A stretch of DNA of 64,000 nt from a virus: the IMG/VR virus record IMGVR_UViG_3300025000_000061, positions 32,001-96,000 of that record; one strand, given 5' to 3'. Below, one piece after another: positions 7,302-32,013 of this stretch. A program made the translations under genes and the position numbers. Under the pieces are notes generated by a model. It was not told where the DNA came from, did no database searches, and was given only the letters and a program-made list of their open reading frames with translations. The number at the start of each line of letters is the position of its first letter. Within the stretch, counting starts at the first letter, position 1.

Positions 7302-7724
7302 TTGAAAATATTACATAATGCTCAGTGTTATAAGCAAGATAGGGAGTTGGATTGGAGAGGGTGGTGTCCGAAGAGGGGTGAGATTTATTTGTGTCAATTG
7401 GGTAATGAAGGTCTTATATATTCAGAGATTAAGGGGTATCGTCCCGTATTGGTTGTGTCAAATAACATAGCAAACAAACATAGTCCAGTAGTTTCTATTA
7501 TACCATTAACTTCTAGTCAAATAAAAAATAATAATATGCCTGTTCATGTTAAAGTAGGAGTAGAAGAAGGGTTACGAACTTCGAGTTTAATTTGTTGTGA
7601 GCAGACTAAAACCGTATCTAAAAATCGTATGTTCATAAATGGTAGTTTAACTAGAATTTGTAAATTGAGTAGTAAATCGATGTGTAAAGTGGACGAGGCA
7701 ATACGAATACAATTTGGATTGTAA
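7302..7724 (+). CDS. mazF: MazF/PemK-family endoribonuclease, no adjacent antitoxin
   Basis: PKRGEIYLCQL...SEIKGYRPVLVVSNNIANKHSPVVSIIPLTS...HV...CEQTKTVSKNR; catalytic Arg and Thr positions retained. Confidence 0.92.
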   Translation: MKILHNAQCYKQDRELDWRGWCPKRGEIYLCQLGNEGLIYSEIKGYRPVLVVSNNIANKHSPVVSIIPLTSSQIKNNNMPVHVKVGVEEGLRTSSLICCEQTKTVSKNRMFINGSLTRICKLSSKSMCKVDEAIRIQFGL

Positions 7725-7873
7725 ATAAATTGGGAATAGATTATAAATATAAATTATAATATATATTATCATATATTATAAAAGGGTGTGATGTCTTTGA
7801 TTGTGTAAAAATAAATTAAAAAGTTATTGTGTTTAAATTGTATCTATTAAAAAATAATATAAAAGGAGGATAT

Positions 7874-9412
7874 ATGTTAGTAAAAAATCAAAAAGTTAAA
7901 ATGAATTGGAGTGGAAGTAATAGAAAACATTATGAATTAAAAGGATATCCTTTTACTAATTATAATGATGAATTTGAAGTTAAAATAGAGGATTTAGCAC
8001 CAAAAAGTCAAAAATATGTTTTGATTAGATGTGATTATTGTGGGATACCTTTTTTGAGAAGGTATGTAAATCATAATACAAGAAAAGAGAAATATGGTAT
8101 AAATGATAAAGATTGTTGTGATGATTGTAGAGCATATAAAAGAGAAGAAACATGTTTAGATAAATATGGTGTTAAAAACGCTGCTCAGACAGAAGAAATA
8201 CAAAATAAAATAAAAAGAACAATTAAAGAAAAATATGGAGTAGAATATATTTCTCAATCAGAAGAAATTAAAAACAAAAAGAAACAAACTTGTTTAGATA
8301 AATATGGAGTAGAATATACCTTACAAGTGCCAGAAATTAGAGAAATAATTACAGAAACTAATATAAATAAATATAGATGTGAAAATCCATTTCAAGCAGA
8401 AGAAATTAAAGAAAAAATAAGACAAGTCAATATGGATAAATATGGAGTTGAATATGCTTCCCAATCTTTAGAAGTGAAAGAAAAAACCAAACAAACTAAT
8501 TTAATAAAATATGGGAAAGAATACTACTTACAAACAGATGAATACAAAGAAAAGATTAAACAAAATAACCTAGACAAATACGGAGTAGAATATTATTCAC
8601 AAACAGAAGAATATAAAAACAAATATAAGCAAACCTGTCAAAATAAATATGGTGTTGATAATGTTTCACAAGTTCCAGAAATTGCAGAAAAAATTTCACA
8701 ATCACGTACAAAAGAATTTAAAGATTTGACAAATATAAAATTTAACCATTTAACAGTAATTTCTTTAGTACCTGATAAAACAAATAAGCACCATGATAGG
8801 TATTGGCTATGCGAATGTGATTGTGAAAATAAAACTAGAAAGGAAATTTCAGAAAATCATTTAGTTAGAGGAAATATTAAAAGTTGTGGGTGTATACGAA
8901 AAGAATCATTAATTGAAAGATGGGAAGGTAAAACAAAAAAGGATATATATCCTTATTACAAAGAAATATATTGTACATATGATAGTATGAGAAAAAGATG
9001 TTATAATGAAAAACATGATAATTATAAAAGATATGGTGGTAGAGGAATAATTATTTGTGATGAATGGTTGAATGATTTTATGAATTTTTATAATTGGGCA
9101 ATAAAAAACGATTATAAAGAAGGATTAACTATTGAAAGAATTGATTATGATGGCAATTATGAACCTGATAACTGTAAATGGGCAACATGGGAAGAACAAA
9201 GTTATAATAAATCAAATACGTTATACATAGAAGTAGACAATGAAATGAAAACAGTTAAACAATGGTCTGATGAAACAGGGATACCTCAACATATAATATA
9301 TCAAAGATATGCCAGATATAAAAGAAAAGATAAAAAAGAATTAGAGTTATTAACTAAAGAAAAATTCTTTAAACCAGTTAGACAACTCAAAAGAAAGGGT
9401 GATGTTGTCTGA
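7874..9412 (+). CDS. Free-standing HNH-type homing endonuclease with 23-aa KYGV repeats
   Basis: ATG 7874 after AGGAGG; about 8 repeats xTCLDKYGVEYxSQ; C-terminal WLCECDC..SCGC..MRKRCYN..YGGRGI..LTIERID..GNYEPDNCKWAT. Confidence 0.8.
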   Translation: MLVKNQKVKMNWSGSNRKHYELKGYPFTNYNDEFEVKIEDLAPKSQKYVLIRCDYCGIPFLRRYVNHNTRKEKYGINDKDCCDDCRAYKREETCLDKYGVKNAAQTEEIQNKIKRTIKEKYGVEYISQSEEIKNKKKQTCLDKYGVEYTLQVPEIREIITETNINKYRCENPFQAEEIKEKIRQVNMDKYGVEYASQSLEVKEKTKQTNLIKYGKEYYLQTDEYKEKIKQNNLDKYGVEYYSQTEEYKNKYKQTCQNKYGVDNVSQVPEIAEKISQSRTKEFKDLTNIKFNHLTVISLVPDKTNKHHDRYWLCECDCENKTRKEISENHLVRGNIKSCGCIRKESLIERWEGKTKKDIYPYYKEIYCTYDSMRKRCYNEKHDNYKRYGGRGIIICDEWLNDFMNFYNWAIKNDYKEGLTIERIDYDGNYEPDNCKWATWEEQSYNKSNTLYIEVDNEMKTVKQWSDETGIPQHIIYQRYARYKRKDKKELELLTKEKFFKPVRQLKRKGDVV

Positions 9413-10008
9413 TTGAATTTATTATAGGAGCAATTTTATATGCAAAATATAAAAAGAAATATAAATTAAAATACATATTTAAATACCCATACATATTTGC
9501 AATAATACCACCTTTATTATGTGCCTTACTATACATATTTATAGAAATATCAGTTTGGAATCAATGGTATTGGTTTTTACCATATCAACATATAATAAAA
9601 ACTACAACTTTGTTAAGTTATATACCTTTACTTTATATATATAATCTTTATGAAAATGATAATCAAAAATACATAAATAATAATATAATGAATGTAGTTA
9701 CTTCACCTATGTTTAAAGCAGGATTCTGCTTATGGTTAGGTTCGACATTAAATAAAATAGTTATAAATGCTAACAATGGTATGCCAGTTTTCCCTAGTAA
9801 TACATACTGGACTGGTTACGCCAAACCAGATTTATTTAATGATGGTATACATATATTAGGTAATGCTTATACAAAATTAATTCCTTTGTCAGACTGGATT
9901 GATATTTTTTACTCGGTGATTTCCCCAGGAGATATTTTAATTCGTATGTATGTTTTTTTAATTATATATTATGCTATAAAATATTCTAATAAATTATTAA
10001 TAAAATAA
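9409..10008 (+). CDS. DUF5317-family membrane protein (true start probably CTG 9409)
   Basis: Frame open from CTG 9409 after GGGTGA SD, giving (M)IEFIIGAILYAK..; NKIVINANNGMPV and TKLIPLSDWI..VISPGDILI motifs. Confidence 0.8.
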   Translation: MIEFIIGAILYAKYKKKYKLKYIFKYPYIFAIIPPLLCALLYIFIEISVWNQWYWFLPYQHIIKTTTLLSYIPLLYIYNLYENDNQKYINNNIMNVVTSPMFKAGFCLWLGSTLNKIVINANNGMPVFPSNTYWTGYAKPDLFNDGIHILGNAYTKLIPLSDWIDIFYSVISPGDILIRMYVFLIIYYAIKYSNKLLIK

Positions 10009-10080: not shown

Positions 10081-10881
10081 GTGGAACAAAATATTATAAA
10101 TGCGATATTGAATTTTTTCACAATTAGTTTGTTCGAGGAGTTAGGTATAGTTTTACTAATTTTAATATTTTTAAAAAGATTTGATTTACTTGATAAATAT
10201 ATGTGGAGATGGAATATAAAATGGATAATTTTGCCTACAATTTTAACGTCATTCTCCATAAATATATTTATATACATAATACCAAATTTTATATTAAAAT
10301 TTTTTGTTTCTATTATTGTTTTATACTTTTCTATAAATTATATCTTAATTAAAACAGACCCATTAGATGAAAAAATAAAATGGTATAAAATATTAATCAG
10401 TATAATATTAAGCATAGTTATGATAACAAGTGCAGAAATAATATATTTACCAATAATGCTTCAATATGTTAATCAACCAATAGAAATATTGAATAATAAT
10501 ATGTTATTAAAATTTATAGTAAGTTTGCCAGCAAAAACATTTCAAGTGTTATTGATTTATTTCATGTATAAAAAACATAATCAAAGTGAAAAATATGTTT
10601 CTAATATTTTAAAAGATAGAATATTATCTTTAGTTACAATTAGTTTTACTGGTTTAATATTGTTTGCTTTAACATGTATAGTAAAAATTGTAATTAGTTC
10701 AGAAATGATTGGTAAATATTCAATACAAACTCAAATGATGATTAGTGTATTAATAACAATTGTACCAACAATACTAATATTTCTTTATATCATACCAATT
10801 AATTACCTATTATCACGATTATTCAGAATACAACAGAGTTATCAACAAATGTATGATGATGTTGATGATACTGATGTATAG
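10081..10881 (+). CDS. Polytopic membrane protein resembling an AgrC/VirS sensor domain, lacking a kinase domain
   Basis: About 7 hydrophobic helices; directly upstream of agrD; ends in a short acidic tail with no H-box or GHKL domain. Confidence 0.6.
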   Translation: MEQNIINAILNFFTISLFEELGIVLLILIFLKRFDLLDKYMWRWNIKWIILPTILTSFSINIFIYIIPNFILKFFVSIIVLYFSINYILIKTDPLDEKIKWYKILISIILSIVMITSAEIIYLPIMLQYVNQPIEILNNNMLLKFIVSLPAKTFQVLLIYFMYKKHNQSEKYVSNILKDRILSLVTISFTGLILFALTCIVKIVISSEMIGKYSIQTQMMISVLITIVPTILIFLYIIPINYLLSRLFRIQQSYQQMYDDVDDTDV

Positions 10882-10913
10882 ATACAATGAATTGAAAGGA
10901 GGTGAAATTTATT

Positions 10914-11039
10914 ATGAAAAAATATACTCTTTTAGTCGTAGCTGGTTTTATTGCTTTAGTTGCTACTGCACTTACTAATTCCGTAGCATCTTTCATGGGA
11001 TTGAATCAACCTAAGAGTCCTTCTATGTTAGTAAAGTAA
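10914..11039 (+). CDS. agrD: AgrD-like cyclic lactone autoinducer peptide precursor, 41 aa (not in ORF track)
   Basis: Strong SD AAAGGAGGTG; MKKYTLLVVAGFIALVATALTNSVA-SFMGL-NQPKSPSMLVK, i.e. amphipathic leader, 5-residue ring and QPKxP tail; agrB is 1.5 kb away. Confidence 0.88.
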   Translation: MKKYTLLVVAGFIALVATALTNSVASFMGLNQPKSPSMLVK

Positions 11040-11055
11040 TATGACTACATAGAAA

Positions 11056-11093
11056 ATTCTAAAGTAGAGTGTTTACTTCCTCTACTTTAGAAT
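11056..11093 (+). terminator. Hairpin after agrD
   Basis: ATTCTAAAGTAGAG / CTCTACTTTAGAAT perfect 14-bp stem. Confidence 0.7.
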
Positions 11094-11179
11094 AAAAAAA
11101 TAATATAAAAACTATTGTGTTCTATATTAATATATGGTAACATATAGACAAGAATATAATAAATAAGGAGTGGTAAAAA

Positions 11180-12055
11180 ATGATGTTATTTAATAAAAAA
11201 GAAATTCTTAAAAAAGATAATCTTGTGGATGATAAATTTAAAAAAGAGATGGCATTTTTAGTATTTAAAGCAAAAGGTAGACGAAATATTGAACAATTCG
11301 TAAAAGACATGAAAATGTTTGATCCTACACCAATCGTTAATTTAATAAATAAAAATTATAATGAATTACCTGATAGAAAATTATTAAGGAAAATAGCCGA
11401 TAATAGTATGGGAATGGTTAATTTTAGGATATTATATGATCTCTGTGGTTACTCCGAGAGAGATCCTGAAGAAGATCGTAGTTGGATAAAATGGGTTCCA
11501 AGATGGGCAGAAGTTTATATGTGTGATCTAGGCATAGGAGAGGATTGTATTCAAGGAGGGAAAAGAAATGTATTAATAATTCAAAATAATAAAGGCAACC
11601 AACACTCACCGAATGTATCTATATTGCCAATATCCAGTAAATGTAAATTTAACCATATGCATATACTATTAGAAAAAGAATTGGGTTTTGAAAGGGATAG
11701 TTACGCATTGTCAGAAATGCCATTAACTGTAAGTAAGAGGAGGTTCTTTTATAATACAGTACCTTATAAAATTACAACACTTTCAGATTTTAAAATGAAA
11801 GAAATACAGGTATGTCTTGAGAAACAATTTGGATTTTTACCACTTTATTTTGACGTAGAACATGCATTTGAACTAGTCAGACATATAAAAAATCTAGAAC
11901 AAAATATAAAAATCAAAAAATCACATAATTTAGTAGATATTATGGAAGATAAATTAAATGACCTAAAAGAATACTGTTCAAAATACAAAAAGAATTATCA
12001 ACATTACCTACAAGAATACGATAGAATCAATAACTATGGTATTCAAGCAATATAG
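11180..12055 (+). CDS. XRE-like HTH - MazF/PemK fusion with C-terminal extension
   Basis: N-term KAKGRRNIEQF..LPDRKLLRKIAD..LYDLCGY; centre PRWAEVYMCDL..QGGKRNVLIIQNNKGNQHSP..GFERDSYAL. Confidence 0.8.
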   Translation: MMLFNKKEILKKDNLVDDKFKKEMAFLVFKAKGRRNIEQFVKDMKMFDPTPIVNLINKNYNELPDRKLLRKIADNSMGMVNFRILYDLCGYSERDPEEDRSWIKWVPRWAEVYMCDLGIGEDCIQGGKRNVLIIQNNKGNQHSPNVSILPISSKCKFNHMHILLEKELGFERDSYALSEMPLTVSKRRFFYNTVPYKITTLSDFKMKEIQVCLEKQFGFLPLYFDVEHAFELVRHIKNLEQNIKIKKSHNLVDIMEDKLNDLKEYCSKYKKNYQHYLQEYDRINNYGIQAI

Positions 12056-12126
12056 TGTAAATACTATATTTCTTCTATAAAATATTAATAATAAACAAAA
12101 AACAAATAAAAGGAGATGTTCAACAA

Positions 12127-12600
12127 ATGATTAACGAACACAAATTAAAGTATCTATGCAACAAATATGGTATTAATTATCAAGTATTTCATGCAACAGA
12201 TACCATATTAATAGATGCAAAATTAGATATATGGGAGGTGAAATATTATGAAGAAATACAAAAAAAATTAAATTTATTATACAATAAACAAAAAGAAATT
12301 CAATTGCAATTATTATCTCCTGTATTAGATGAACCAATTAAGAAAAAATTATTATATGAATATGAAAAAATAAACAAAAAAATAAAAGAAACAAAACCAT
12401 ATTATTTACTTCATAAAAATAAATCTGATAATAAATTTAGCAATCAGCACACACAAGGATGGAAGAAAAATTTATATCAAGTAATAACTTTTATATTAGC
12501 ACATAAAAGAGTTTTATATGGCATCCAATTAGGAAAGCCATATATACATAAGCACAATATTAAAATAAATAAGAAGGGAAAAGTATGTTTAAATACATAA
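12127..12600 (+). CDS. Hypothetical protein overlapping the agrB start
   Basis: ORF with AAGGAG SD. Confidence 0.7.
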   Translation: MINEHKLKYLCNKYGINYQVFHATDTILIDAKLDIWEVKYYEEIQKKLNLLYNKQKEIQLQLLSPVLDEPIKKKLLYEYEKINKKIKETKPYYLLHKNKSDNKFSNQHTQGWKKNLYQVITFILAHKRVLYGIQLGKPYIHKHNIKINKKGKVCLNT

Positions 12601-13271
12601 GATACCTATTAACATTCCGATATATCAAACTAATATCCTATATATCTGCTAAATATCTTCATAATAAAATACCTGTATTCCCACTAATAGATTCAAAAGT
12701 TTTATTAAAATTTTTACCAAAAAATATGTTAGATTTATTTGAAAATTTACATCAACAATCTAAATTAAAACCATATAAACTTAAATATGTTTATTACTAC
12801 GGTTGTCAAATCATCATAGGAGGCATTAACAAATTCCTACTCTTAATCACACTAGGCATCCTACTCAACATCCTCCCATATCTCATACTAACAACAATAT
12901 CATTCGTATCATTGCGAATTTGGTCTGGAGGGTTACATTTTGACTCTTACTCTAAGTGTGCCTACATTTCACTCTTATCATTTACAATCATGGCACTATT
13001 AGCAAAATACATCTACATATCAACCATACCTACTATATTAATATTCTTAATTGTCTTAATTTTAATTCTATTATATGCACCAGTAGAGCATCCCAACAGA
13101 CCAATAAAAAATAACGAAAAAGTTAAATTTAAATTAATTTCAATTTTCTCATTGTTAATATTACTATTAGTTATTTTATGCGTAAATAATATTATTATCT
13201 GTAATTCTATAGTGTTTGGAGTGCTATTAGCAGGTATAATTATGTTGCCTATTATAAACAAACTGAAATAG
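12585..13271 (+). CDS. agrB: Accessory gene regulator B (AIP-processing membrane peptidase)
   Basis: LRIWSGGLHFDSYSKC (catalytic His/Cys pair) and YAPVEHPNRPI motifs; multiple TM segments. Confidence 0.93.
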   Translation: MFKYIRYLLTFRYIKLISYISAKYLHNKIPVFPLIDSKVLLKFLPKNMLDLFENLHQQSKLKPYKLKYVYYYGCQIIIGGINKFLLLITLGILLNILPYLILTTISFVSLRIWSGGLHFDSYSKCAYISLLSFTIMALLAKYIYISTIPTILIFLIVLILILLYAPVEHPNRPIKNNEKVKFKLISIFSLLILLLVILCVNNIIICNSIVFGVLLAGIIMLPIINKLK

Positions 13272-13732: not shown

Positions 13733-13761
13733 TTGACATAGTATGAAGATACATATATAAT
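13733..13761 (+). promoter_or_regulatory. Consensus sigma-A promoter of the repressor-like operon
   Basis: TTGACA-17 bp-TATAAT. Confidence 0.85.
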
Positions 13762-13809: not shown

Positions 13810-15183
13810 ATGCTTAGTATAAAAAATGCTATGTTAATAGGAGAGTTAAAACCACTAATATTAAAGTATGGCAACAATTCAAAAATCTATAACATTATAC
13901 AAGAGGAATTTATTAAAAAAGGGTTATCTGGTAGCAATGCAAAAAACTTACTAACAGGTAAAATTGCTTTAGAAACATTAGATATTACCAATCAAAAAGA
14001 ATTATTCTTATTATTTTCTTTTACAGATGCTATGAAGAAAGCACTAAGTACATTTGATGAAATGTCCAAGGACACTTTTGGCATGGAAGAGGAATATATT
14101 AAATTAAAATTAGAATATTATTTTACACCCATAGAGATTGAAGAATTTACAGAATTCGTTATAGAGAAAGAAGAAGTAAGAAAATATCCGTATAGATTAA
14201 GAAATATGTTAAAAGTAGGAGAAAATCATTATATAGGGATTATAACTTCTAAAGAATTAGCCGAAATAGATTCTACTAATGATATAGTATATGACTTTGC
14301 AACACAAAGAGATCCTAAAATTGATATATTTGGAATGAGACGTATTAATGTTGACACAAGAAAAATTGATGCAATTGAAAAAAGTTTACTTGCTGGTGAA
14401 TATTTTTCAGATGAAATCAAGTTGAATGTTAAGAATGATGGAGAAGATCATATCGAATTCGATTCAAAGGACGGAATTTATGGTGATCTTATTATTCATT
14501 CAGGAACAATAACTTGTTTTGATGGCTATCACAGAAAAACTGCCAATTCTAAAGCGCAAAATAAAAATAATGAATTGCAATTTAACTGGAAGTTAGGTGT
14601 CACCAATTATCCAGAACCTAAAGCAAGAAAATTTATGACACAGATTAATAAACAAAAACCTATTAAACGTGAATACGTTAAAAATATTGATGAAACAAAA
14701 AATGAAAATACAATTGTCAATAATATTATTAATAATTCTAATTCTGAATTTGCCGATAAAATTAAAGAATCTGATGCAGAATTAAAATTTAGTGGTTTAA
14801 CTAAAAAATCTATATTATCTCTAGCAATAGAAGAACAATATGAAGAATTTTTAAACACTAAAATTTATAATATTGAAATCTCTAATTGGATAGTAGACTT
14901 TACAAATTATTTAATGGGACTATATCCTAATGAATTTTTATTTAATGTAGACAAAACTAAAAAAGTAAGTTATATTAATAATAGAAATATGTTCATAGGT
15001 TATATTGCACTTTCAAGAAAGTTATATAAGCAAGATGATTGGAAGAGTAAGACCGTTAAAATAATGAACAGTATTGATTTTAGCATTGAAAATAGCATAT
15101 GGAAGAATATTCGTATTGATGATAATATTTTAAATAAAACATCAAGAAAAGAATTATATAATCTATTTATAAAGGAGGTGTAA
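13810..15183 (+). CDS. ParB/DndB-like (DGxHR) protein, resembling SPbeta YopQ/SroE
   Basis: TQRDP and FDGYHR motifs; 457 aa; immediately upstream of an integrase-fold gene. Confidence 0.7.
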   Translation: MLSIKNAMLIGELKPLILKYGNNSKIYNIIQEEFIKKGLSGSNAKNLLTGKIALETLDITNQKELFLLFSFTDAMKKALSTFDEMSKDTFGMEEEYIKLKLEYYFTPIEIEEFTEFVIEKEEVRKYPYRLRNMLKVGENHYIGIITSKELAEIDSTNDIVYDFATQRDPKIDIFGMRRINVDTRKIDAIEKSLLAGEYFSDEIKLNVKNDGEDHIEFDSKDGIYGDLIIHSGTITCFDGYHRKTANSKAQNKNNELQFNWKLGVTNYPEPKARKFMTQINKQKPIKREYVKNIDETKNENTIVNNIINNSNSEFADKIKESDAELKFSGLTKKSILSLAIEEQYEEFLNTKIYNIEISNWIVDFTNYLMGLYPNEFLFNVDKTKKVSYINNRNMFIGYIALSRKLYKQDDWKSKTVKIMNSIDFSIENSIWKNIRIDDNILNKTSRKELYNLFIKEV

Positions 15184-15186
15184 ATA

Positions 15187-16251
15187 ATGGTAAAGCATAA
15201 AAATGGTAAGATTAACTTAGCAGAGAGAGTATTTAAACATGATAGAGATGTTAAAGAAGAATTTTTAAAAGATATTAAACCATCAACTGCAAAAACTATA
15301 AGAAGCATACTTTTTAAAGTAGATGATTATGAAGATCGAATCGGTAAAAGTATATATGATTTTACCTTTGAAGAGCGTGATGATTTCTTTATTTCTCAGT
15401 TTTGTAATAAAAGTAAGGGCGTTATTAATACAACAAGATCATATTTAGTAAAGTATATTAACCATTGTATTGATAACAACCTTGTTAGACATATGGAGAA
15501 TAGGTTTGATTTAATTTCTAAAGATGATATTGATAAATATATTAATGATACTGCAATGCAAATGAAATATCTATCTAGAGAAGAAATTAAAGAAGCACAG
15601 GATAAATTAGTTAATAATTGTGATAAGTTAATTTTGCAATTAATACCTTTGTCTGTCAGAGGGCGTACAGAATTGAATAATACTAATGAAGAATTAATTA
15701 ATTTGAGAGTAAAAGATGCTGAAGAATCTTATGAAACAGGTATTTTGCATGTCTGGAATAATGACGGTGATAGAAGACCTGTGAAAATTGATGAAGAAAC
15801 AATAGAATTATTGAAAAAGACAATAAATGATGATAGTTATATTATTAATAACGGAAGCATTTATGATAAAAAAGGGAGAATACTTGGCAGGGGTATCGGA
15901 GAAAAATGTTTTCCTTTAAATGATACTGGTTATGTATTTAGAACTGCTGGTAAGAATAAAAAAGGAAAAGTTAAAACTAATTTTTTTGGTTCTAGGATGA
16001 GAATAATGAAAACCTGGACGATGAATCCATTTATCACCGTAACGAATTTGTATTATTCTGGAATTATCGATTATGCTATGCAATTAAGAAAAGAAAAAGG
16101 TACAGAATTAGATAATCATGATTATATTAAAATAATTGATAAGTTTTCTTATGGTAAACCACAAATACTATCAAACAAAGAATTAGATTGGAGTGTACCA
16201 ATATCAAAAGTAAAATCTATGGTGGAAGATTATATTAATAGAAAATTATAA
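15187..16251 (+). CDS. Tyrosine-recombinase-fold protein with degenerate active site, putative master repressor (YopR/SroF/MrpR-like)
   Basis: SAM-like N-terminus; YLSREEI; VRGR..EELINLRVKD; HxxR box replaced by TNLYYSG. Confidence 0.7.
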   Translation: MVKHKNGKINLAERVFKHDRDVKEEFLKDIKPSTAKTIRSILFKVDDYEDRIGKSIYDFTFEERDDFFISQFCNKSKGVINTTRSYLVKYINHCIDNNLVRHMENRFDLISKDDIDKYINDTAMQMKYLSREEIKEAQDKLVNNCDKLILQLIPLSVRGRTELNNTNEELINLRVKDAEESYETGILHVWNNDGDRRPVKIDEETIELLKKTINDDSYIINNGSIYDKKGRILGRGIGEKCFPLNDTGYVFRTAGKNKKGKVKTNFFGSRMRIMKTWTMNPFITVTNLYYSGIIDYAMQLRKEKGTELDNHDYIKIIDKFSYGKPQILSNKELDWSVPISKVKSMVEDYINRKL

Positions 16252-16263
16252 AGAGGTGATAAA

Positions 16264-17145
16264 ATGGCAAAAGACGTTAATTTATCTGATTACACTGATA
16301 TAGAAGTTTATAATATGCTTAGATTTGGTATTATAGGTAGATTTCCTAATAATTTTTGGGGTGGTTTAGATACCTTTAAAACTGCAAAAGATTTAACCAA
16401 GTATATGTTTGAAAATATTCTCAAATGGGATATAGAAGATATTAAAAATAATACAACAGCAGATATTTTTTATGACTATAGACTTGGTGGTATGCTGAAA
16501 CAATTATTTAATGGTAATGTTTTAGATGCATTATTAAATGCATATCCAGAATTAGAAGAAGAATGGGTAGAATCTAAAAGAAGGACTAAAAACGAAAAAG
16601 AAGAAGATAAAAGAGAAAAAGAAGAAAAAGAAACAAGAGAAAAATATACAGATGAACAATTGATAGAAAATTTACAGCAAAAATTTAAACAATTAAATAG
16701 AAATCCTTATATAAGAGAAATGTCAGATCCAGATGGAAATGTATATTTAACAAGATTTGGTAGTTGGACTAAGGCATTAATTGCAGCAGAATTGCTTGAT
16801 GATATTTGTGCAGATGTAGATGATTCCGAAGAAGCAATTTATGAAGCACAAATTAAGATTAAAGAATTTGCATATCAATTAGGAAGATACCCTACAGAGG
16901 AAGAAGTTAATGATTTATTTTCACAAGGAGAAATAAAAGTTTATTTTAAATCTTTAGTTGGACTTTATAATTATTTAAATGAAGGGTATACAAAAGAAGA
17001 ATTGATAAATATTTTGGTTGATAAAAGAAATAAATTAGATAGAAATCCAATAAACAAAGATATAAAATTCCCAAGACCAATTATTTTTATTGATAAATTT
17101 GAAAGTTGGGAAAATGCTTTAAAAGAAGCGGGATTAGATAAATAA
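16264..17145 (+). CDS. DUF4046-like domain plus homing-endonuclease-associated repeats (putative DNA-binding protein)
   Basis: EVYNML..RFPNNFW..KYMFENILKW; repeats FGSWTKALIAA and FESWENALKEAGL. Confidence 0.65.
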   Translation: MAKDVNLSDYTDIEVYNMLRFGIIGRFPNNFWGGLDTFKTAKDLTKYMFENILKWDIEDIKNNTTADIFYDYRLGGMLKQLFNGNVLDALLNAYPELEEEWVESKRRTKNEKEEDKREKEEKETREKYTDEQLIENLQQKFKQLNRNPYIREMSDPDGNVYLTRFGSWTKALIAAELLDDICADVDDSEEAIYEAQIKIKEFAYQLGRYPTEEEVNDLFSQGEIKVYFKSLVGLYNYLNEGYTKEELINILVDKRNKLDRNPINKDIKFPRPIIFIDKFESWENALKEAGLDK

Positions 17146-31963: not shown

Positions 31964-32013
31964 ATTAAAAATATTAAAATAAAAATAAAATAAAAATACA
32001 TAATAAAGGAGAA

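Follow-up and report, generated by a model that had tools for sequence, protein, structure and literature searches.

In the SPbeta-type phage phi3T the arbitrium peptide signal acts through the MazEF toxin–antitoxin (TA) system of the host: AimX and YosL inhibit MazF, phi3T_93 binds MazE, and host MazF, once free, favours lysogeny (PMC10769878). Two other systems bear comparison: the solitary MazF-mx of Myxococcus xanthus, which is controlled by the transcription factor MrpC (PMC2701414), and the C. difficile phage phiCDHM1, which carries agrB and agrD along with the AgrC histidine kinase (PMC3901668). Our subject is a gene whose product joins a helix-turn-helix (HTH) domain, a MazF domain and a C-terminal domain (CTD), found in a stretch of 64,000 nt – the window – comprising positions 32,001 to 96,000 of virus record IMGVR_UViG_3300025000_000061. 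The gene lies among Agr-type signalling genes, upstream of a repressor operon of the SPbeta type. The reading that we prefer, and hold tentatively, is that the protein is a regulated phage RNase which, within the lysis–lysogeny switch, may carry out in the cytoplasm the response to an Agr-type signal that has no kinase. To our knowledge, MazF has until now been linked to the lysis–lysogeny decision of a phage only through the host MazEF exploited by phi3T; in the literature we found no description of an HTH–MazF fusion, nor of a kinase-less Agr cassette in phages.

The likeness to phi3T is one of position and of proposed role. Both phages are of the SPbeta type and encode a peptide signal directly upstream of the yopQ–yopR (sro) operon; in phi3T the MazF RNase is the effector that biases the outcome toward lysogeny (PMC10769878), and by analogy the same role is proposed for the window protein. 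The components differ: phi3T relies upon host MazEF, a linear peptide and an intracellular HTH–TPR receptor, whereas the window phage has MazF genes of its own and an Agr-type cassette for a cyclic peptide. The cassette genes look unrelated to AimR, AimP and AimX – no dedicated query was run – and only the position relative to yopQ–yopR is common to the two. With phiCDHM1 the locus shares phage-borne agrB and agrD, but the record lacks HATPase and LytTR domains and has a MazF fusion inside the cassette. MazF-mx, too, is a MazF without MazE that is tied to a protein of DNA-binding type, and has been recruited into a developmental decision; MrpC is nonetheless a separate protein encoded elsewhere, whereas the window protein, encoded by a phage, has its HTH in one chain with MazF. 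The toxin of canonical mazEF is a single domain of ~110-120 aa; the fusion has 291 aa and three domains, and its upstream neighbour is agrD. CapRel(SJ46) and EzeT, which are single-chain fused toxin–antitoxins, likewise combine a toxin and a possible regulatory domain in one polypeptide of a phage-related element, and their toxin families differ from MazF. The gene and its parts are as follows.

11180..12055, + strand: HTH–MazF–CTD gene, 291 aa (open reading frame; homologues)
11231..11446, + strand: N-terminal XRE-type five-helix HTH domain, residues 18-89 (AlphaFold2, VIA-align)
11447..11500, + strand: linker, residues 90-107, with the acidic/Trp motif GYSE.DPEEDRSW (conservation)
11501..11839, + strand: MazF/PemK endoribonuclease domain, residues 108-220 (Pfam, PDB, Foldseek, conservation)
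11564-11566, + strand: predicted catalytic Arg129 (alignment to Bacillus MazF Arg25)
11633-11635, + strand: predicted catalytic Ser152 (alignment to Bacillus MazF Thr48)
11840..12052, + strand: three-helix CTD with a YC..Y motif (AlphaFold2, phrog_1936 profile)

A strong ribosome-binding site (AAGGAG) stands 8 nt upstream of the ATG, and the gene sits between agrD (10914-11039) and agrB (12585-13271), inside the agr cluster as an initial annotation of this stretch had stated. The existence of 61 full-length homologues (~290 aa) at 45-80% identity, together with full-length cluster representatives that reach down to 25% identity in an exhaustive search, marks the protein as a member of a conserved family and not a chance reading frame. 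An AlphaFold2 model built on 25 homologues (mean pLDDT 82) consists of five helices (residues 18-89), a MazF barrel (111-217) and three C-terminal helices (226-290, as 226-246, 249-268 and 273-290); the last of these regions is the helical extension that the annotation had noticed.

The central domain matches Pfam PemK_toxin (PF02452; residues 111-216, E 1.4e-14, 54.7 bits against a cut-off of 23.1) and, by PDB sequence match, the MazF structures of S. aureus and B. subtilis (E ~1e-11, 35-38% identity). In Foldseek the modelled barrel aligns to B. subtilis MazF 4MDX_A with a TM-score of 0.90 and an rmsd of 1.8 A, and the domain, with the SH3-like barrel fold of MazF, has 128 PDB matches at E <= 0.001. 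Alignment to S. aureus MazF bore out what the annotation had read in the active site, namely that the Arg is kept, that RP has become RN and that the catalytic Thr has become Ser: GGVRP reads GGKRN in the fusion, and the AIT of AAITGR reads PIS. Arg25 and Thr48 form the catalytic pair of Bacillus MazF, and an active MazF of M. tuberculosis has Ser at the Thr position (PMC7354611). Among 27 diverse relatives (24-70% identity) R129 is present in 27/27 and Pro130 in 24/27; position 152 is Thr in 19 and Ser in 8, hence T/S in 27/27; and the substrate-side residues S174, E179 and Q180 are kept in 27/27, 27/27 and 23/27. The RN variant is restricted to the closest clade of the fusion protein. Conservation of catalytic and substrate residues over such deep divergence, combined with the activity of the Ser-type M. 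tuberculosis enzyme, gives the MazF domain the look of a working RNase and not of a relic, and we consider it likely that the fusion protein is active. Compared with chromosomal MazF/EndoA of B. subtilis and S. aureus (4MDX, 4MZM) it has the same fold, the Arg with Thr/Ser and the S..LLEQ-type motif; it differs in the added N-terminal XRE domain and C-terminal three-helix domain, in being phage-borne with neither a MazE nor an RHH gene, and in the substitutions of its own clade, RN for RP and EM for EQ.

The same residues bear upon two proposals of the initial annotation. In one, the protein would be a non-catalytic transcription regulator in which the MazF fold only helps the HTH domain to dimerise or to bind a ligand. 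The changes at two conserved positions in the window clade (RP to RN, EQ to EM) would suit such a regulator, as would the label 'PemK family transcriptional regulator' that some phage MazF homologues bear in older database records. However, a scaffold would not need the Arg, the Thr/Ser and the S..LxE(Q) motif that 27/27 or nearly all relatives keep; the HTH appears to have been lost repeatedly while MazF+CTD persists; and the recognition helix is atypical of DNA binders. Since Arg, Thr/Ser, S174, E179 and Q180 are conserved down to 24% identity, we regard a mere dimerisation or ligand module as improbable. In the other proposal the protein would be a decoy that titrates host MazE, or heterodimerises with host MazF, and thereby switches on the host MazF system. 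There is precedent in phi3T_93, which binds MazE and releases host MazF (PMC10769878), and the MazF domain is 35-38% identical to Bacillales MazF; but a decoy would not need the conserved catalytic residues, and the phage already has a second, plain MazF. A sink for host MazE thus gained no support, and we think it most improbable.

The window belongs to a record of 151,782 bp (CheckV completeness 82%), is AT-rich and has all its genes on one strand. Homologues of yopQ and yopR stand adjacent to one another as in SPbeta and phi3T, and for this reason we take the window to be part of a large, Clostridium-type, SPbeta-like phage of 152 kb, an identity read from gene content. The genes that matter for the context of the fusion are these.

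9610..10008, + strand: DUF5317 membrane protein, a cassette member (Pfam E 3.9e-15; co-occurrence in related loci)
10081..10881, + strand: seven-transmembrane (7-TM) protein 'TM266', with no kinase domain and a short acidic tail (hydropathy, positive-inside)
10914..11039, + strand: AgrD-like precursor, predicted ring S-F-M-G-L followed by NQPKSP (motif)
12127..12600, + strand: small basic His-rich protein 'p157', 157 aa (conserved next to MazF+CTD)
12585..13271, + strand: AgrB (Pfam AgrB, E 7.4e-37)
13810..16251, + strand: SPbeta-type repressor operon, made up of the next two genes
13810-15183, + strand: yopQ-like gene (tblastn to SPbeta/phi3T yopQ, E 1e-13 to 1e-20)
15187-16251, + strand: yopR/MrpR-like gene (tblastn to yopR, E 1e-9; Pfam MrpR_N_CB)

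MrpR, the product of yopR, is the master repressor of SPbeta. The yopQ–yopR pair, which by tblastn has the order and adjacency of the pair in SPbeta and phi3T, lies downstream of the signalling genes; from the 5' end the genes that precede it are plain MazF, an HNH homing endonuclease, DUF5317, the 7-TM protein, agrD, HTH–MazF, the 157-aa protein and agrB. In the annotation of phi3T the genes directly upstream of the yopQ–yopR operon are aimR, aimP and aimX; yopQ is phi3T_96, and phi3T_93 is an 81-aa protein unrelated to it. A megablast search of phage and plasmid collections with 15 kb found nothing, and PADLOC returned nothing for any gene of the locus.

Evidence that the fusion belongs with its neighbours came from the loci of close and distant family members, scored with hidden Markov models (HMMs) built from the window proteins. 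All 12 of the 12 distinct HTH-bearing lineages (24-80% identity) adjoin genes of the agr cassette – 7-TM protein, AgrD-like peptide, AgrB or DUF5317 – one of them with an AgrB remnant only, whereas the cassette is found in 0/5 HTH-less lineages; loci of related phages are not each independent evidence. The near relatives (the window, L003, L012, L013 and L014) have the order DUF5317–TM266–AgrD–HTH.MazF–p157–AgrB–YopQ–YopR. In the deep relatives (24-37% identity; L009, L010, L011 and L095-L098) TM266, AgrD and/or AgrB stand beside the fusion gene: in L009, L095, L096, L097 and L098 a 7-TM gene and an AgrD-like peptide are directly upstream, and in L011 the order is permuted to fusion, AgrB, DUF5317, 7-TM. 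The HTH-less MazF+CTD loci comprise L102, L104 and L105 (P0048, P0070, P0071), the C. botulinum plasmid pNPD1_1 (L001) and CST027 of phage c-st (L101). Their genes stand 1-2 genes upstream of yopQ-like genes, except in L102/P0048, where only yopR-like fragments are present, and a p157 homologue follows in all except c-st. As a control, 80 generic MazF loci (1.05 Mb), obtained from a scan of genome contigs, gave two matches to AgrB and none to TM266, YopQ or YopR. Gene order thus indicates two associations: MazF+CTD, often with p157, accompanies the yopQ–yopR region, and the HTH domain occurs together with the Agr-type cassette.

The CTD extends the comparison beyond the fusions. Many relatives of ~190 aa consist of MazF and the same CTD with no HTH. 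PHROGs family phrog_1936, 'MazF-like growth inhibitor', matches residues 111-279 (profile positions 13-179 of 188, E 1.1e-15), and the 188-aa MazF of pNPD1_1 aligns through the CTD (29% identity, E 4e-18), in which the YC motif is invariant in the HTH-less family. The phrog_1936 proteins (c-st CST027, pNPD1_1 MazF) share with the fusion the MazF core, the helical CTD with its YC motif and the site one or two genes upstream of yopQ–yopR homologues; unlike the fusion, they have no HTH and no neighbouring cassette of AgrB, AgrD and 7-TM protein. The MazF+CTD lineage would appear to be phage-specific and a fixed part of the lysis–lysogeny region in clostridial SPbeta-like phages and phage-plasmids, and a role of the fusion protein in the lysis–lysogeny switch seems to us reasonably probable. 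The HTH-less genes of pNPD1_1 (L001 5004-9236) and c-st (L101 6950-11144) lie just upstream of yopQ–yopR; in pNPD1_1 a 160-aa TPR protein is encoded between MazF and the p157-like gene, and could represent a different sensor input at the equivalent position.

A second MazF gene of the window throws light on the history of the fusion.

7302..7724, + strand: plain MazF paralogue, 140 aa (alignment, tree)

This protein is 38% identical to residues 82-219 of the fusion, retains a vestige of HTH helix 5 and of the linker (D..W..W.P), and nests inside the HTH clade of a tree of the MazF core; by all appearances it is a truncated paralogue derived from the fusion type. In the same tree – 115 columns, weakly resolved – HTH and HTH-less forms interleave, and its well-supported branches require a minimum of 7 changes; the three nested HTH-less lineages of known context have no agr cassette. 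The nesting of HTH-less forms and of the plain paralogue among HTH forms indicates that the HTH has been gained or lost repeatedly. Metagenomic contigs of short length are the source of most relatives, and gene calls that are cut short may account for some of the 'HTH-less' proteins. Two proteins, P0022 (404 aa) and P0048 (211 aa), are natural deletion derivatives in which recombination has joined the two paralogous MazF genes, and in both cases the agr cassette was lost.

The XRE-like character that the annotation had given to the N-terminal domain was borne out by its fold. Residues 18-89, for which the domain was also modelled alone, have a pLDDT above 90. When compared by VIA-align with 48,161 PDB representatives, all 50 of the 50 matches listed were five-helix, lambda-repressor-like structures and nearly all were DNA-binding domains of XRE/Cro/C1 type; the best had Z-scores of 6.0-8.9 and an rmsd of ~2-3 A over 63-75 residues, led by 2ofy_B (Z 8.9, 2.6 A over 75 residues). 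A Z below 8 is weak on its own, and it is the uniformity of the list that supports the five-helix fold. Sequence profiles say little: Pfam finds no HTH in the fusion protein itself and gives weak matches among 25 relatives (HTH_3 in one, E 0.0078; HTH_26 in two, E 0.054), a profile of the domain against PDB sequences gave matches at chance level, and Foldseek with the domain alone had none below E 0.001, its weak rows being XRE proteins.

Structural neighbours of the N-terminal domain include the HTH antitoxins HigA, HipB and GraA as well as the HTH domains of RRNPP receptors, and the former raise the possibility that the protein is a fused antitoxin–toxin. The XRE domain and acidic linker would then be a former upstream antitoxin that neutralises and autoregulates in cis, the module would act in abortive infection, in superinfection exclusion or as a prophage/plasmid addiction system, and the agr neighbourhood would be inherited synteny. 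HTH followed by MazF is indeed the usual operon order of antitoxin and toxin; the phage lacks genes for MazE and RHH antitoxins; the acidic/Trp linker shows strong conservation among near relatives, E98 and W102 being invariant; and L005 retains the protein without the cassette. Yet we found neither a stand-alone homologue of the N-terminal domain nor a split form of XRE and MazF in two genes, in searches of limited sensitivity, and XRE was not among the usual partners of MazF in a 2009 census (PMC2701414). The lack of a split form bears also on the self-inhibited RNase that the annotation had proposed, a reading that may still apply. The linker motif, moreover, occurs in the HTH-less paralogue, so that it belongs to the MazF part; in deep relatives it is less conserved and in several of them not acidic. 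Nor does a fused antitoxin explain why the HTH correlates with the agr cassette. We judge this reading unlikely.

The gene downstream of the fusion invites another TA interpretation. Genes for p157 lie downstream of MazF genes in 12/18 distinct related loci (13/19 counting the window), and p157-like proteins occur next to MazF+CTD in different lineages, that of the C. botulinum phage-plasmid among them (HMM E 1e-10 to 4e-27). Family members are at 12127-12600 of the window and 6143-6595 of L001, and also in L104, L105 and L102; the window protein has a coiled-coil-like insertion of ~45 aa that is not in shorter homologues, and in L014 an insertion of ~1.7 kb (10838-12515) separates the p157-like gene from the fusion gene. 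Five residues are invariant (H96, N98, H108, Q110 and H126, in H-x-N, H-x-Q and H-K motifs), and p157 has no match in Pfam, PDB, NCBIfam, PHROGs, PADLOC or Atlas. The statement that no antitoxin gene adjoins the fusion therefore held in part: MazE (PF04014) and RHH_1 (PF01402) had 0 matches in the whole 151,782-bp record, control genomes having matched, whereas p157 is a conserved candidate partner immediately downstream. On the strength of this conservation p157 is probably a partner or neutraliser of MazF+CTD.

Were p157 an antitoxin, the locus would be a two-gene TA system in reversed order, with HTH–MazF–CTD as a toxin whose HTH autoregulates the operon, acting as a stabiliser of the prophage or phage-plasmid with no part in signalling. 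The conservation of p157 beside MazF+CTD across lineages, C. botulinum phage-plasmid included, is in keeping with this, and so are the survival of the gene pair after loss of the cassette (L005, L102) and the presence among the carriers of several phage-plasmids, elements that commonly bear addiction modules. A basic, His-rich protein with invariant H, N, H, Q and H, however, resembles an enzyme or metal site more than it does an antitoxin of the acidic, partly disordered kind; p157 is missing directly downstream in L010, L011, L095, L096 and L098; the fixed site upstream of yopQ–yopR points to the switch region and not to a free-standing addiction cassette; and the link of the HTH to the cassette is again unexplained. 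This arrangement, too, we hold to be unlikely.

That link is what the preferred reading – a phage RNase under the control of a peptide signal – seeks to explain. The cassette has an AgrB peptidase and an AgrD precursor; the AgrD-like peptides keep [S/C]-x4-(N/H/Y)QPKxP in 8 related loci and match TIGR04223 AgrD weakly. Its AgrC kinase and AgrA LytTR regulator are missing: HATPase_c and LytTR had 0 matches across the whole 152-kb record. TM266 is found in the same or a neighbouring position in every HTH-bearing locus whose contig extends that far. It has six hydrophobic blocks, one of double length, and ends after the last helix, with a C-terminus predicted from the positively charged loops to be cytoplasmic and a tail that is usually acidic (..ENMYDD.D). 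Position and topology suggest TM266 as the receptor. In a cassette with neither kinase nor response regulator, the fusion protein is the most likely cytoplasmic output of the peptide signal, although we regard the case for its coupling to the cassette as evenly balanced.

Mechanistically, the state of the 7-TM protein, or the peptide, would control HTH–MazF, which would cleave phage or host transcripts – a conserved UACAU lies at the 3' end of agrD – and may bind operators via its HTH domain; the outcome would bias the lysis–lysogeny decision, as does host MazF under arbitrium control in phi3T. One specific, and rather doubtful, version has a cyclic peptide act on the kinase-less 7-TM protein to hold or release HTH–MazF directly, with no phosphorelay and with p157 as a further control; peptide density would thereby be read out as RNA cleavage, perhaps along with operator binding, and lysis or lysogeny set accordingly. 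A complex prediction with 2 copies of the fusion and the last 36 residues of the 7-TM protein scored 0.00; made without controls, it speaks neither for nor against binding.

Several observations weigh against our reading. The putative recognition helix begins D-P-x-P/Y and has few basic residues, and the charge of the N-terminal domain ranges from +7 to -2 among relatives, which together make DNA binding uncertain. In the closest clade the changes from RP to RN and from EQ to EM may have modified or lowered the activity. Of 9 homologues of the 7-TM protein, 2 lack the acidic tail, and the protein itself has no detectable homology to the AgrC sensor: searches for such a link gave no NCBIfam or Pfam match, no longer homologues and no tblastn match in phage or plasmid collections. 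It could act in peptide processing or export and not in reception. One lineage, L005/P0022 (19 contigs), keeps HTH–MazF and p157 after losing all of the cassette but an AgrB remnant, which indicates that the fusion protein is able to persist without it. Synteny among related phages can, finally, reflect common descent and not functional coupling.

Homologues of the 7-TM protein are not confined to phages. Among bacterial Clostridia they occur in 11/401 sampled genomes, with up to 3 copies each; they have 271-343 aa and are always kinase-less (loci L106-L112). An AgrD-like peptide is typically encoded next downstream and AgrB often upstream, and from this arrangement the loci look like a kinase-less variant of Agr in bacteria too. 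In two cases a separate XRE gene adjoins the 7-TM locus, a weak lead.

In architecture and in context the fusion is thus a new form of MazF, one that may plausibly play a role in phage communication. Clostridial SPbeta-like phages and phage-plasmids, C. botulinum relatives included, encode a MazF of their own at a position equivalent to that of the arbitrium genes in phi3T, and the system offers direct tests of how MazF promotes lysogeny, a question left open by work on phi3T. Should the preferred reading be right, Agr peptide signalling would operate without a two-component system, phages would have a second, non-arbitrium system of peptide communication, and a function could be given to three uncharacterised families: the MazF CTD, p157 and the 7-TM protein, which in bacterial Clostridia is likewise a neighbour of AgrD.

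Two elements between agrD and the fusion gene are also conserved.

11043..11092, + strand: motif and hairpin with a 13-bp stem, 3' of agrD (alignment of 5 loci)
11115..11143, + strand: putative promoter of the fusion gene itself, TTGTGT, 17 nt, TGG-TAACAT (sequence inspection)

The motif, which follows directly upon the agrD stop codon, reads GACTACATAG in the window and AACTACATAG in L003, L012, L013 and L014; within it ACTACATAG, which contains UACAU, is invariant in 5/5 aligned loci. UACAU is the cleavage site of Bacillales MazF. Pairing of the hairpin is maintained, with compensatory changes in 6/10 pairs, and the run 3' of it is A-rich rather than T-rich, so that it is no classical terminator. 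Promoter-like hexamers and the TGGTAA.AT element are conserved in 4/5 aligned loci. A conserved UACAU, a hairpin and a promoter-like element would fit a feedback loop, which we offer as a lead only. Elsewhere in the window neither the 13-nt arm of the hairpin nor the AACTACATAG motif turns up more often than expected by chance, and neither looks like a repeated operator. On the sense strand TACAT has 6 copies in agrB against 1.2 expected and 3 in DUF5317 against 0.7; it is absent from the fusion gene, from the yopR-like gene and from the gene that follows the latter (these two together at 15187-17145), for each of which 1.5-1.9 are expected; the numbers are small.

Just 5' of the yopQ-like gene stands a sigma-A promoter of perfect consensus (TTGACA, 17 nt, TATAAT; 13733-13761), the sole 12-of-12 match within 7-14 kb. 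One further gene separates plain MazF from DUF5317.

7829-9412: HNH homing-endonuclease gene (DUF7487), between plain MazF and DUF5317

It holds seven 69-bp tandem repeats that encode repeats of 23 aa. In related loci the gene is shorter, absent or located elsewhere (3' of the fusion gene in L096), a variability of size and site that is as expected for a mobile insert.

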